The notes under the pieces: model-generated | Database searches by the model: none | What the model was told of the DNA's origin: nothing | What the model saw: only the letters and a program-made list of their open reading frames with translations | Virus record (IMG/VR): IMGVR_UViG_2703718816_000002 | Location: 1-18,683 of that record | Length of the DNA: 18,683 bases | Direction: 5' to 3' (one strand) | Origin: a virus | Taxonomy: Duplodnaviria > Heunggongvirae > Uroviricota > Caudoviricetes | Made by a program: the position numbers and the translations under genes | Shown: piece by piece, positions 4,838-14,731 of the stretch | Numbering within the stretch: the stretch's first letter is position 1 | Layout: every line of letters begins with the position of its first letter

Positions 4838-5268
4838 AATAGCTCTACGGTGAAAAATGATTCATTTTTATGAAGTTCATTTTTAGGGTCTTCATTATCT
4901 TGCAATATCCCTATAACACTATATAGCCCTTTAGCTGGGACCCTAATTTCTTTCAATGTTACTATTACCTGTCCGCCAACCCCTGTTTCAAAATGGCTAT
5001 CTTTCGTATCGATGAAAAGTGAAACTGATTCCGAAGAGCCGTCAGGGAATTGAATTTCCTCACCTTTTTTTATAATTAGGTGCGCGGGGATTACCATAAT
5101 ACCCAAATTATATCTTGAATTTGGTTTCAACCCGATCATACCAACCCTGAAATCAATTGATAGCCGCGCAGGAAATTCATTGCATGTAAAATTAAGCGTC
5201 GGTTGGTTGGGTTCTTCGCTGCTATCAAATGGGGTTATAAAAGATATTCTTTCTAAATTAAGTGCCAT
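4834..5268 (-). CDS. hypothetical protein (144 aa), in the rexA position
   Basis: The ORF track gives 4834..5322, but the internal ATG at 5268 has AGGAG 6 nt upstream and yields MALNLERISFITPF... Predicted soluble and beta-rich. Translationally coupled to the 206-aa ORF. No family recognised. Confidence 0.55.
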   Translation of the reverse strand: MALNLERISFITPFDSSEEPNQPTLNFTCNEFPARLSIDFRVGMIGLKPNSRYNLGIMVIPAHLIIKKGEEIQFPDGSSESVSLFIDTKDSHFETGVGGQVIVTLKEIRVPAKGLYSVIGILQDNEDPKNELHKNESFFTVELL

Positions 5269-6413: not shown

Positions 6414-6479
6414 TATCACCGCAAGGGATAAATATCTAACACCGTGCGTGTTGACTATTATACCTCTAGCGGTGATAAT
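6414..6479. promoter_or_regulatory. oR operator region (OR3, OR2, OR1) with divergent pRM and pR
   Basis: OR3 TATCACCGCAAGGGATA (6414-6430), OR2 TAACACCGTGCGTGTTG (6437-6453), OR1 TACCTCTAGCGGTGATA (6461-6477). pR -35 TTGACT (6451-6456) and -10 GATAAT (6474-6479). Cro RBS AAGGAGG at 6493-6499. Confidence 0.9.
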
Positions 6480-6503
6480 GATTGCCTGTACTAAGGAGGT
6501 TGT

Positions 6504-9971: not shown

Positions 9972-10495
9972 CTATCAAATCAAATACGCCAGCACACGAC
10001 AAGGACTGCTGGCAAACGCCGCTTTGGCTTTTTGATGCACTGGATATTGAGTTTGGATTCTGGCTGGATTCGGCAGCGAGCGACAAAAATGCTCTGTGCG
10101 CTCACTGGTTAACTGAGGCCGACGACGCGCTAAATTCTGAGTGGATAAGCCACGGTGCAATCTGGAATAACCCGCCGTACAGCAATATCAGGCCGTGGGT
10201 GGAAAAAGCCGCTGAGCAGTGCATACAACAACGACAGACGGTAGTGATGCTTGTGCCAGAGGATATGTCTGTCGGATGGTTCAGTAAGGCTCTGGAGAGT
10301 GTTGACGAAGTTCGCATCATCACTGATGGACGGATTAATTTTATCGAACCATCGACAGGGCTGGAGAAGAAGGGAAACAGCAAAGGTTCCATGCTGCTGA
10401 TTTGGCGACCGTTCATCAGTCCTCGACGGATGTTTACTACCGTATCCAAAGCGGCATTGATGGCGATCGGGCAGGGCGTCAGGAGGGCGGCATGA
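9968..10495 (+). CDS. phage DNA N6-adenine methyltransferase (Dam-type, NPPY motif)
   Basis: The ORF track starts at 9908; the ATG at 9968 overlaps the ninB stop (ATGA) and gives 175 aa. Contains [12 protein letters not shown] and the catalytic-type motif NPPYS, typical of the phage Dam family found in nin regions. Confidence 0.8.
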
Positions 10496-10683
10496 GGCGA
10501 CAGCGACGAAGTATCACCGACATCATCTGCGAAAACTGCAAATACCTTCCAACGAAACGCTCCAGAAATAAACGCAAGCCAATCCCAAAAGAATCTGACG
10601 TAAAAACCTTCAATTACACGGCTCACCTGTGGGATATCAGGTGGCTAAGACATCGTGCGAGGAAAACAAGGGGATTGACGTGA
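10492..10683 (+). CDS. ninE: NinE
   Basis: The ORF track starts at 10402; the ATG at 10492 overlaps the methyltransferase stop (ATGA). [60 protein letters not shown] matches lambda NinE as recalled. Confidence 0.85.
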
Positions 10684-10766
10684 TGATTTATCCGGGGCTA
10701 TATTCCTCACACGCCAGCAAAATCTGGCGTCGGGATTAGCACCCCGGATGTTTACGGAGCGATATG

Positions 10767-10788
10767 AGACGCGCCCGCGTCTTTTTTC
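10767..10788 (+). terminator. candidate Rho-independent terminator in the nin region
   Basis: AGACGC gccc GCGTCT (6-bp stem, 4-nt loop) followed by TTTTTT. Confidence 0.55.
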
Positions 10789-10951
10789 ATATCGTTTGCA
10801 CAGTCACATTCGCGATTTATGGCGGGCTGTGTGGGGGAGCCGAAAGGCTCGCCGGTTTCCGTACCCGGTAGTGCTAACCCCGCACAGTTCGCCACCATGA
10901 TGATTAGCACCTGACGGTGGCGATAATGTCCAAATGTACGGAGTTATCGTT

Positions 10952-11656
10952 ATGGCCACTCAGATTTCTGTCGAAACTCTTTCCCCAATTACACACAACC
11001 AAATTCCCGTTATCACTACCGAGTTACTGGCACAGCTTTACTGTACCGAGATCAACAACATCAAAGTAAATTACACCCGTAATTCCGAGCGTTTTGTTGA
11101 GGGTAAACACTTTTTCAAGGTTGTTGGTGATGAGTTGAAAATTTTGCGGGTTACTTTAAGTAACTCACAAAATTTGCAACCATCTTTAAGAGGGTTACAA
11201 ATTTCCCCGAAAGCCCGCTCCCTCATCCTCTGGACAGAACGCGGAGCAGCCCGTCACGCCAAAATGCTCGAAACCGATCAGGCGTGGGAAGTGTTCGAAA
11301 AACTGGAAGACTGCTATTTTAGCCAGTGCGAGAAAAATACTGGCAAACAAGAGAAGAAGCTCAACGGGCTTTCCGCAAAAGAAACAGACAGCCTTGTATG
11401 GCTGTGGGATTATGCTAACCGCTCACAGGCATTATTCCGCGAATTGTATCCAGCGCTAAAGCAAATTCAATCGAACTATTCCGGCAGATGTTACGACTAC
11501 GGTCATGAGTTCTCGTATGTTATTGGAATGGCGAGAGACGTTTTAATCAATCACACACGAGATGTTGATATTAATGAGCCAGACGGACCAACGAATCTTT
11601 CCGCATGGGTAAGGCTTAAGAACAAAGAATTACCTCCTTCACTACATCGCTACTGA
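10952..11656 (+). CDS. ORF6N-domain phage protein (antirepressor-like)
   Basis: The ORF track starts at 10934; the second in-frame ATG at 10952 has GGAG 8 nt upstream. The N-terminal half ([46 protein letters not shown]...[32 protein letters not shown]) has the pattern I associate with the ORF6N / KilA-N-like domain. Assignment by recollection. Confidence 0.55.
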
Positions 11657-11724: not shown

Positions 11725-12453
11725 ATGACAATGAACGAGCTGATAAATAGCAACGTCATCAAAATGACCAGCATTGAAATCTCTGAGCTTACAGGTAAGC
11801 GTCATGACAATGTGAAACGTACTATCGAAATGCTGGCTAAAAATGGTGTTATCCGACATCCTCAAATTGAGGATTGTGGAAGAATCAATGGGTTAGGCTT
11901 AAATCAAAGTTTTCGTGTGTATGTATTCGAAGGCGAACAAGGTAAGCGAGACAGCATTATTGTCGTTGCCCAGTTGTCGCCGGAATTCACCGCTCGTCTT
12001 GTTGACCGTTGGCGAGAGCTTGAAGACGCTGCGGTTAATATCCCCAAAACTCTACCAGAAGCGTTGCGCCTTGCTGCTGATCTTGCTGAGCAGAAAATGC
12101 AACTGGAAAACCAGCTCGCAATTGCCGCACCTAAAGTTGAGTTTGCCGATCGCGTTGGCGAGGCCAGCGGAATTTTGATTGGAAACTATGCAAAGGTTGT
12201 TGGTATTGGTCCAAACAAACTGTTTGCGTGGATGCGCGAACACAAAATCCTTATTGCTTCAGGTTCCCGGTGCAATGTGCCAATGCAGGAATATATGGAT
12301 CGCGGCTATTTCACAGTGAAAGAAACAGCGGTCAATACAAATCACGGAATACAGATATCGTTCACCACAAAAATCACCGGGCGTGGTCAACAGTGGCTGA
12401 CCAGAAAGCTGCTCGATAACGGAATGCTGAAAGTAACAGGGGAGGCTGCTTAA
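11725..12453 (+). CDS. phage antirepressor: Rha-family N-terminal domain plus KilAC-type C-terminal domain
   Basis: 242 aa. N-terminal SIEISELTGKRHDNVKRTIEMLAKNG is Rha-like; C-terminal GNYAKVVGIGPNKLFAWMREHKILIASGSR is KilAC-like. Start could be 11725 or the ATG at 11731; the GAGAGGA RBS favours 11731. Confidence 0.75.
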   Translation: MTMNELINSNVIKMTSIEISELTGKRHDNVKRTIEMLAKNGVIRHPQIEDCGRINGLGLNQSFRVYVFEGEQGKRDSIIVVAQLSPEFTARLVDRWRELEDAAVNIPKTLPEALRLAADLAEQKMQLENQLAIAAPKVEFADRVGEASGILIGNYAKVVGIGPNKLFAWMREHKILIASGSRCNVPMQEYMDRGYFTVKETAVNTNHGIQISFTTKITGRGQQWLTRKLLDNGMLKVTGEAA

Positions 12454-14017: not shown

Positions 14018-14731
14018 ATGGATGACAGTGCTCTGTTCAGAAACTCTTCACTTTTTGTTGCTTATATGGGCTGTCTCGGATGGGGGAGCGCTTATTTCTA
14101 TGGATGGGGTACTTCATTTTACTATGGCTTTCCATGGTGGGTTGTCGGGGCTGGTGTCGATGATGTAGCACGAAGTTTGTTTTATGCTGTGACAGTTATC
14201 GTTATATTCCTTATTGGATGGGGAGTTGGTATTGTTTTCTTTTTGGGCATAAAACAAAAGCGCAATATACAAAATTTGAGTTTTATCCGGCTTTTTCTCG
14301 CGATATTGCTGCTTTTTATTCCACCTGTTCTGGAGTTTTCTGTAATTCATCAGCATGTTGAGCCAGATGTACTGATTTTCTGCGTTCTTGCTGCCTTTGC
14401 AATCACGCTTTTTGTCAGGTCTGGAAGAAGACTTGTTTCAGTCAAATGTTTTTCGGAAATGTCTGTTATTCGCCATCACCGAATTGAGTTCATGATGGCT
14501 GGGTTTATGATTTATTTCTGGGCATTCTCTCTTATTGCCGGTTGGTACAAACCACAGTTTAAGAGGGAATATCAGGCGGTCCACTATGAGAATGTATGGT
14601 ATTACATTATTGCGCGCTATGATGATCGTCTGGTGTTATCGAAATCATACAGGAGTGGGGGTAAGAAATTCGTTATATTTAATAGCGGAAATATTAATGA
14701 TTTTGAAATTAATACTGTCAGAGTACGTTAA
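14018..14731 (+). CDS. hypothetical polytopic inner-membrane protein (237 aa), AT-rich cargo gene
   Basis: ORF-track 14018..14731. At least five hydrophobic segments rich in Phe/Trp/Tyr (for example LFYAVTVIVIFLIGWGVGIVFFLGI, LSFIRLFLAILLLFIPPVLEFSVI, FMMAGFMIYFWAFSLIAGWY). Very AT-rich. Has its own promoter candidate and is bracketed by the diverged direct repeats. No family recognised. Confidence 0.6.
   Translation: MDDSALFRNSSLFVAYMGCLGWGSAYFYGWGTSFYYGFPWWVVGAGVDDVARSLFYAVTVIVIFLIGWGVGIVFFLGIKQKRNIQNLSFIRLFLAILLLFIPPVLEFSVIHQHVEPDVLIFCVLAAFAITLFVRSGRRLVSVKCFSEMSVIRHHRIEFMMAGFMIYFWAFSLIAGWYKPQFKREYQAVHYENVWYYIIARYDDRLVLSKSYRSGGKKFVIFNSGNINDFEINTVRVR

Follow-up and report, generated by a model that had tools for sequence, protein, structure and literature searches.

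What a GC-rich, multi-stem element does in the nin region of a lambdoid prophage is the question raised by an 18,683-nucleotide stretch of viral DNA (IMG/VR record IMGVR_UViG_2703718816_000002, here called the window). The original prediction, made from the sequence alone, placed the element in a gene-free gap of about 250 bp between ninE and the gene for an ORF6N-domain protein and considered that it might be a small RNA or else a processing site or a structure bound by protein. The gap measures 268 bp, from the end of ninE at 10683 to the start of the antirepressor gene ant at 10952, and the small-RNA proposal is supported by an Rfam match and by covariation. We conclude that the element very probably encodes an antisense RNA of the C4 type, the repressor of an antirepressor module like immI of phages P1 and P7, here in a lambdoid prophage of lambda immunity. 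Most likely, to judge from the sequence, C4 keeps the prophage antirepressor off by pairing with its ribosome-binding site. C4 is a long-known, curated RNA family and stands here in its typical context, and thus the finding is already known. Only three points are mildly new: that the 'orf45' of Gifsy-1 coincides with C4, that a conserved hairpin displays one of the C4 targets, and that modules residing in the same genome differ in specificity.

The C4 fold and its family

What structure does the element adopt? For positions 10815-10899 of the plus strand, the minimum-free-energy and centroid folds agree. A closing stem of 17 bp (10820-10836 with 10878-10894), which contains the 16-bp stem originally described (10821-10836 with 10878-10893), encloses two hairpins, both already predicted where they are found (GAGCC-GAAA-GGCTC and CCGG), and an unpaired junction:

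10837-10850, plus strand: hairpin 1, GAGCC-GAAA-GGCTC with a GAAA tetraloop, inside the closing stem
10851-10869, plus strand: hairpin 2, GCCGG-UUUCCGUAC-CCGGT (U in RNA) with a 9-nt loop, inside the closing stem
10870-10877, plus strand: unpaired junction, AGUGCUAA

The fold energy of 10815-10899 is -49 kcal/mol, compared with -30.0 +/- 3.2 kcal/mol for 200 dinucleotide shuffles, none of which was as good (0/200; z = -5.9). The minus strand folds more weakly (-39.8 kcal/mol), and the closing stem contains three G-U pairs (G10825-U10889, G10826-U10888, and U10832-G10882); thus, the plus strand is the RNA strand. An RNA from the minus strand was rejected on account of its weaker fold and the lack of an Rfam match on that strand. 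When the whole 250-nt leader was folded, the C4 fold persisted as an independent domain. The element had been called far more GC-rich than its surroundings, and its GC content is indeed higher (0.66 in 10820-10899 versus 0.45-0.58 in the flanks), but the wording somewhat overstated the difference.

Which family does the structure belong to? An Rfam scan, suggested as a check by the original prediction, was run on the whole window at curated gathering thresholds and matched the element over its full length to RF01695, C4 antisense RNA (10815-10899, plus strand; 78.8 bits against a threshold of 45; model positions 1-87 of 87; E = 2.7e-14). The Rfam consensus structure of C4 is identical to the predicted minimum-free-energy fold. 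Two related families matched upstream on the same strand, RF03163 (c4-a1b1) marginally at 10698-10750 (47.7 bits against 46.7; model positions 1-53 of 53) and RF01394 (isrK) at 10711-10787 (73.5 bits against 50; model positions 1-77 of 77). The c4-a1b1 match has the two hairpins of that family, with the a1 sequence in the loop of the second, and the isrK match has a promoter of its own, placed for a start near 10711, and an intrinsic terminator at its 3' end (10766-10787). A match to SNORD88 at 10889-10923 (19.9 bits against 46) was dismissed as spurious, as it only picks up the hairpin around the a2 target described below.

Comparison with relatives, likewise suggested as a check, revealed strong compensatory change. 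An alignment of 24 sequences, including P1 and the Hamiltonella phage APSE-7 and drawn from phages and at least eight genera, yielded the same consensus structure. Both sides had changed in 14 of the 27 base pairs, including 8 of the 17 pairs of the closing stem and all five pairs of hairpin 1; the stem of hairpin 2 was fixed by the search pattern, and therefore its invariance carries no information. Paired cells made up 96.3% of the alignment, compared with 85.5% in shuffles and 31-50% in slid controls, and compensatory cells numbered 56, compared with 15 in shuffles; none of 500 shuffles reached the observed values. The element is both conserved and covarying, the opposite of what had been named as grounds for giving it up.

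Could the element be coding sequence? Two overlapping open reading frames (ORFs) had been pointed out, and both exist: one of 31 codons on the plus strand (10819-10914) and one on the minus strand (10752-10910), for which the quoted 48 amino acids hold from the first ATG and 52 from a GTG. Neither matched Pfam, and the plus-strand ORF matched nothing in NCBIfam. The ORF across C4 varies from 14 to more than 62 codons among relatives. Over its 5' half, column entropy is 0.66 at the first, 0.82 at the second, and 0.54 at the third codon position, and over its 3' half the values are 0.66, 0.66, and 0.56; third positions therefore vary least, contrary to what coding sequence would show. With no family, no stable length, and no codon-position signal, a coding role was rejected for the window, and the conserved protein that had been envisaged as the competing outcome was not found. 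The AUG of the plus-strand ORF (10819-10821, the 'orf45' start in Gifsy-1) belongs to the consensus of the RNA family (AUGG) and straddles the predicted RNase P cut between U10820 and G10821; processing would therefore destroy the start codon. The stop (10912-10914) lies 37 nt before the ant ATG and in another frame. We note that some phage records call spurious coding sequences over C4, as 'hypothetical protein' or 'ash family protein' (at 1259-1426 in L048 and at 1309-1422 in L054), and that C4 RNA is unannotated in the RefSeq E. coli records examined.

Complementary sites in the leader and at ant

What might C4 act upon? The original reading was right in spirit but left the family unrecognized and overlooked the a1/b1 leader, the a2/b2 targets, and the ant Shine-Dalgarno sequence, all of which lie outside its coordinates. 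The module reads as follows:

10675-10704, plus strand: sigma-70-type promoter, -35 TTGACG (10675-10680), 18-nt spacer, -10 TATATT (10699-10704)
10711-10787, plus strand: IsrK-like leader or short small RNA (sRNA; RF01394), with a first hairpin, the a1 hairpin, b1, and a terminator
10711-10730, plus strand: first hairpin of the leader, within the isrK match
10736-10742, plus strand: a1, UUAGCAC, in the loop of a CGGG/CCCG hairpin (10731-10746), complementary to a' (GUGCUAA)
10753-10759, plus strand: b1, UACGGAG, complementary to the hairpin 2 loop b' over 7 bp
10766-10787, plus strand: intrinsic terminator of the leader, GAGACGC-GCCC-GCGUCUU (7-bp stem) followed by a U run
10815-10899, plus strand: C4 antisense RNA gene, the extent of the RF01695 match
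10856-10864, plus strand: b' recognition loop, UUUCCGUAC, of which 10857-10864 (UUCCGUAC) pairs with b2 over 8 bp and 10857-10863 with b1 over 7 bp
10870-10877, plus strand: a' recognition element, AGUGCUAA, of which 10871-10877 (GUGCUAA) pairs with a1 and with a2 over 7 bp each
10904-10910, plus strand: a2 target, UUAGCAC, 8 nt past the predicted 3' end of C4
10936-10943, plus strand: b2 target, GUACGGAG, containing the Shine-Dalgarno sequence GGAG (10940-10943)
10952-11656, plus strand: the regulated gene ant, encoding a 234-amino-acid antirepressor with ORF6N (PF10543, 3.5e-19) and P22_AR_C (PF10548, 2e-27) domains

Between the GGAG within b2 and the ant ATG at 10952 there are 8 nt, and RefSeq likewise starts 'phage antirepressor Ant' at this ATG in a genome with 100% identity to the window over 321 nt (10640-10960). 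The pattern TTAGCAC-N(5-35)-TACGGAG occurs exactly twice in the window, at the two expected sites, whereas 0.01 occurrences are expected by chance. In mature C4, the predicted mean unpaired probability is 0.84 for b' and 0.99 for a', and the duplex of b' with the leader has a predicted energy of -10.4 kcal/mol. Moreover, the sites follow the recognition elements among relatives: with 25 distinct loop/junction combinations, the upstream and downstream sites change alongside at constant offsets in almost every case. Cognate b' and b2 pair over 10.1 bp on average and non-cognate ones over 6.0 bp (0.5% of non-cognate combinations reach the cognate mean), a' and a2 form 7 bp with an unvarying offset in almost every relative, and b2 ends in GGAG or GGAGG in most of them. 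The gene downstream of C4 in relatives encodes an antirepressor or a protein like Icd, which the P1 operon encodes ahead of its antirepressor. As an aside, many unrelated proteins downstream of C4 begin with MAT(T/I)P.

How might the RNA be made? The promoter matches the consensus at 10 of 12 positions and is the sole promoter-like site in 10400-11100; its predicted transcription start near 10711 is the first position of the isrK model match. Transcripts that read through the leader terminator would carry C4 and ant. By homology with the 77-nt C4 annotated in P1, mature C4 is predicted at 10821-10896 (76 nt), with an RNase P cut predicted between U10820 and G10821 and a 3' tail of ACC (10894-10896). 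The sequence determinants for RNase P are present, U/GG at 10820-10822 and ACCA at 10894-10897. As a separate observation, b1 (..ACGGAG) followed by AUG 10764 resembles the layout of the b2 Shine-Dalgarno sequence and its AUG (window 10754-10871); the ORF from AUG 10764 has 35 codons, crosses the leader terminator into C4, and has no Pfam match.

How might the promoter be regulated, and what lies beyond ant? The OR operators of the window are lambda type (TATCACCGC...), and we note lambda-type operators in the cI-cro intergenic region (TATCACCGCAAGGGATA, TAACACCGTGCGTGTTG, and TACCTCTAGCGGTGATA, at about 6417-6480); the prophage immunity is therefore lambda-like. No lambda-type operator was found at the module promoter by k-mer sharing (one 8-mer shared with OR and one with the OL side), and thus the promoter is probably constitutive. 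A second antirepressor-type gene lies directly downstream of ant on the same strand and may be cotranscribed with it:

11725-12453, plus strand: Roi-like gene with Rha (PF09669) and KilAC/ANT (PF03374, 1.4e-32) domains in Pfam; also annotated in RefSeq

Proposed mode of action and its alternatives

How would C4 hold ant in check? Transcription would initiate near 10711 from the promoter at 10675-10704, and most transcripts would end at the leader terminator, 10766-10787, giving a short IsrK-like RNA. Read-through transcripts would include the self-folding C4 domain, from which RNase P would excise, at U10820/G10821, an RNA of about 76 nt with the tRNA-like ACC tail expected from P1 and P7. Mature C4 would expose two unpaired elements, a' (GUGCUAA) in the junction and b' (UUCCGUAC) in the hairpin 2 loop, and their partners in the ant leader would be a2 (10904-10910) and b2 (10936-10943). 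As b2 includes the GGAG Shine-Dalgarno sequence, we propose that ribosomes would be kept off ant and that the antirepressor would be off in the lysogen. The leader copies a1 and b1, either in cis or as the short RNA in trans, would bind C4, such that C4 would be titrated and ant turned on.

The transcript may have a further conformation. If 10889-10896 pairs with 10916-10923, a hairpin forms that takes up the 3' strand of the C4 closing stem together with the ACC tail and displays a2 in a 19-nt loop (10897-10915). Across 25 diverse relatives it is 93.1% paired, with compensatory change in five of its eight pairs; 0/500 shuffles reached the observed pairing or covariation score, and slid controls gave 29-67%. 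The hairpin excludes the lower C4 stem and therefore is possible only in unprocessed transcripts. Such mutual exclusion suggests a bistable precursor, in which case each read-through transcript would either yield C4 or serve as its target. A helix of 10916-10921 with the ant start region (10955-10960) was also considered and found unsupported, as its pairing in the 25 relatives (81.6%) barely differs from shuffles (79.3%) and there is almost no compensatory change.

Are the modules specific? One phage genome and one viral contig carry two isrK-C4 modules each:

Stx2a phage genome LC727845 (L073): isrK-C4 modules at 4984-5166 and 14056-14244
Viral contig L040: isrK-C4 modules at 2515-2716 and 10975-11163

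In both cases, a' and b' differ between the modules. Cognate a' and a2 pair over 7 bp and cognate b' and b2 over 7-12 bp, while C4 of one module pairs with a2 of the other over only 3-5 bp. With two instances, these co-resident modules resemble the heteroimmunity of P1 and P7. We tentatively put forward, as a possibility somewhat short of an even chance, that leader and C4 together form an 'antisense plus built-in decoy' switch with a bistable read-through transcript and independently gated antirepressors. If so, a'/b' alleles that do not cross-pair would gate each antirepressor separately in co-resident lambdoid and Stx prophages. Through the antirepressor that it would gate, the module is relevant to the induction of prophages among Stx and lambdoid phages.

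What speaks against repression of ant by C4 should be set out together. Expression and processing at this locus are deduced from sequence and homology. Each duplex is short (7-8 bp), and the a'/a2 energy alone is not significant compared with shuffled targets (p ~0.09). The window has neither an icd gene, through which translation is coupled to ant transcription in P1, nor a lambda operator recognizable at the promoter by the k-mer test, and the control logic therefore differs from that of P1. For the homologous Gifsy-1 locus, the authors invoked a translated upstream ORF and alternative mRNA folds, and extra 'orf45' RNA raised IsrK toxicity and gave no relief (PMC4825925). The 'orf45' construct ran from the second AUG, 12 nt into the closing stem, to the anrP start, and we suspect that it would yield a truncated C4 together with a2/b2 decoys.

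Might the locus work in another way? C4 could act chiefly on transcription, with pairing at a2/b2 or a1/b1 causing premature termination or Rho-dependent polarity. The CI RNA of satellite phage P4, with its seqA and seqC sites, provides a precedent, and IsrK supplied in trans in Gifsy-1 raised the long transcript about 8-fold besides its effect on translation (PMC4825925). Also, blocked icd translation stops ant transcription in P1, and the P1 record states that icd is required for ant expression. In the window, however, b2 lies directly on the ant Shine-Dalgarno sequence, no intrinsic terminator follows a2/b2, and there is no icd-like ORF to impose polarity; in Gifsy-1, the translational effect (140-fold) far exceeds the transcriptional one (8-fold). 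We consider a chiefly transcriptional mode unlikely, but the two modes are compatible and not mutually exclusive. Alternatively, as in the 'orf45' model, a structured leader with a translated upstream ORF could act in cis, such that ribosomes starting at AUG 10819 would unfold the structure and become coupled to ant, with no need of a free small RNA. Indeed, a tagged orf45 product was detected in Gifsy-1, and mutation of the first AUG or an inserted stop lowered anrP activation (PMC4825925); moreover, the AUG at the 5' edge is kept in most relatives, and the frame is open into the downstream gene in about half. The window ORF, however, neither overlaps the start of the antirepressor gene with its stop, as 'orf45' does, nor shows a coding pattern of substitution. 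As its stop lies 37 nt upstream of the ant ATG and out of frame, termination-reinitiation coupling is unavailable here. The inconstant length, the third positions that vary least, and the lack of a protein family speak against translation as well, substitutions are compensatory for RNA pairing, and the conserved AUGG is RNA family consensus that spans the predicted RNase P site. Thus, we regard control by a translated leader ORF as distinctly improbable at this locus.

Two proposals set control of ant aside or make it secondary. C4 might have been co-opted as a trans regulator of mRNAs of the host or of other prophages, as proposed for many C4-like sRNAs of Acinetobacter baumannii (PMC5320573), and lysogens express the homologous Gifsy-1 RNAs strongly in every condition examined (bioRxiv 787010). 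In a scan that covered the 18.7-kb window and no host genome, however, the sole two paired-target matches were the module's own sites, and targets covary with a' and b' within each module; co-option therefore seems highly improbable. Finally, the element could be a chance GC-rich inverted repeat, or a DNA-level structure for protein binding or recombination, without RNA function. Nothing beyond the look of an inverted repeat speaks for this proposal, and it is refuted by the Rfam match (E = 2.7e-14), the fold (z = -5.9), the strand-specific G-U pairs, and a covariation that 0/500 shuffles equalled; we hold it to be almost certainly wrong.

The module among its relatives and known systems

How widespread is the module? 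Between 164 (near mode) and 278 (distant mode) phage records contain the region, with identities of 60-99%; most are of Stx-converting phages, and its place is always between ninE and ant-roi. It also occurs in 810 of 5,426 complete E. coli genomes, with up to 4 modules in one genome. The identical sequence is present in E. coli OkiPb01678, and O103:H2 12009 has it at 99.1% identity. Pattern scans added 43 viral contigs and 14 genomes, with Enterobacter, Raoultella, Kosakonia, Brenneria, Izhakiella, Dyella, Rhodanobacter, Paraburkholderia, and others among the genera. The genome-scan pattern fixes hairpin 2 and part of a', and therefore divergent C4s are undersampled and Salmonella was missed. 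Among phage-database matches, the closest is PP818812.1 (15568-15838; 98.5% across the entire module), labelled 'Actinobacillus phage vB_Apl-pPE4', a host name unexpected for a lambdoid sequence of the E. coli type. Elsewhere in the window, Rfam matched STnc100 (176.7 bits) at 16342-16610 and, on the opposite strand, AgvB at 15981-16229 (56.6 bits against 56, borderline). These matches directly follow three tRNA genes (Ile, Arg, and Arg), a DUF6645 gene comes next, and Stx phages have stx in this region, where the window has no annotated stx gene.

C4 antisense RNA was first described in phages P1 and P7, has been known since 1990, and is curated in Rfam. The P1 record gives the order promoters with the C1 operator Oc4, a1, b1, the 77-nt C4, a2, b2, icd, and ant1/ant2, and the window has the same a1-b1-C4-a2-b2 order. 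The geometry is the same as well: in P1, a1 and a2 (TTGACAG) pair with the junction (CUGUCAA), and b1 and b2 (GTTAGTG) pair with the hairpin 2 loop. Also shared with P1 and P7 C4 are the three-helix fold, the 5' GG, the ACC tail, and an operon with an antirepressor. In P1 and P7, C4 is excised by RNase P from a longer transcript, b' occludes the ribosome-binding site, and a' gives specificity (summarized in PMC5320573 and PMC11143913). In both loci, a2 lies within a few nucleotides of the C4 3' end (starting 4 nt after it in P1 and 8 nt after its predicted position in the window), and b2 lies at a ribosome-binding site, abutting that of icd in P1 and covering that of ant in the window. The two loci differ in the sequences of a' and b', the module of the window is in the nin region of a lambda-immunity lambdoid prophage, and its promoter has no primary-repressor operator by the k-mer sharing test, whereas that of P1 is under Oc4.

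Is icd part of the system? In the window, C4 is followed directly by the ORF6N/P22_AR_C antirepressor gene; there is no ORF between b2 and ant, and Ant itself does not match NF033153. An Icd-like gene is kept, as in P1, in four relatives (L002, L007, L008, and L058), where it encodes 63-65 amino acids about 55 nt downstream of C4. The protein matched the NCBIfam profile NF033153 in the relative checked (L002; 3.2e-22), a profile that also links P1, but a BLASTP search of the relatives' Icd-like protein against P1 Icd found nothing. With ant directly after C4 in the window and in Stx phages and an Icd-like gene there in others, two operon layouts exist, and icd is a trait of the P1/P7 operon and not of the C4 RNA family.

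Other phages limit antirepressor synthesis or gene expression by RNA in related ways. The sar RNA of the P22 immI region limits synthesis of P22-type Ant by RNA pairing at the ant start. It is an opposite-strand transcript across that start, and hence true cis-antisense, without the C4 fold, the pairs of a and b sites, or RNase P processing; Ant of the window has the P22_AR_C domain in common with P22-type Ant. The P4 CI RNA is a small RNA from an untranslated leader that pairs with seqA and seqC, one upstream and one downstream (PMC4825925). It is like C4, by description, in being a processed small RNA with two flanking complementary sequences, but it acts by premature transcription termination of replication genes and not by masking of an antirepressor ribosome-binding site. 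In APSE-7 (LR794149), the annotated isrK-family sRNA, C4-family sRNA with a' and b', Bro-N gene, and Rha gene have the same layout as the window, and the targets covary with the phage's own a' and b'. APSE-7 is another type of phage in another host, and its record uses the labels the other way round from the P1 record, with a' for the loop and b' for the junction.

The same module is found in Gifsy-1 of Salmonella, which had escaped a BLAST search using the IsrK consensus. In Gifsy-1 (NC_010392, L072), Rfam places isrK (34240-34316), c4-a1b1 (34277-34329), and C4 (34131-34214, 69 bits) on the minus strand in a row upstream of STM2616/anrP, with C4 exactly at 'orf45'/STnc1160. As in the window, the three families stand in this order upstream of an antirepressor gene in a lambdoid prophage, and the leader sRNA has a terminator. 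The two differ in that the stop of the Gifsy-1 ORF that spans C4 overlaps anrP in an AUGA, whereas the window ORF stops 37 nt before ant and out of frame, and in that a' is of the UGCCAA type in Gifsy-1 and UGCUAA in the window. STnc1160, about 80 nt long, is processed and stable and requires the isrK promoter, the IsrK terminator was shown to be partially read through, and IsrK in trans raised anrP translation about 140-fold (PMC4825925), as would be expected of an a1/b1 decoy. The compensatory pairs of that study, IsrK-G28 with orf45-C162 and G31 with C159 (PMC4825925), appear to map to a1 and a' by their distance from the transcription start, and its 'helix d-II', formed by the orf45 ribosome-binding site and the orf45 3' end, would be the C4 closing stem. 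Hershko-Shalev et al. mention neither phage P1 nor RNase P and do not use the C4 framework (PMC4825925), and a 2025 review treats IsrK and c4 as separate systems, while Rfam-based annotation of EHEC EDL933 already includes both C4 and isrK. If the decoy switch holds, the published IsrK 'activation' of the Gifsy-1 antirepressor would be relief of C4 repression, with 'orf45' the C4 RNA itself, and rereading the IsrK/orf45 work by the C4 model would simplify that literature.

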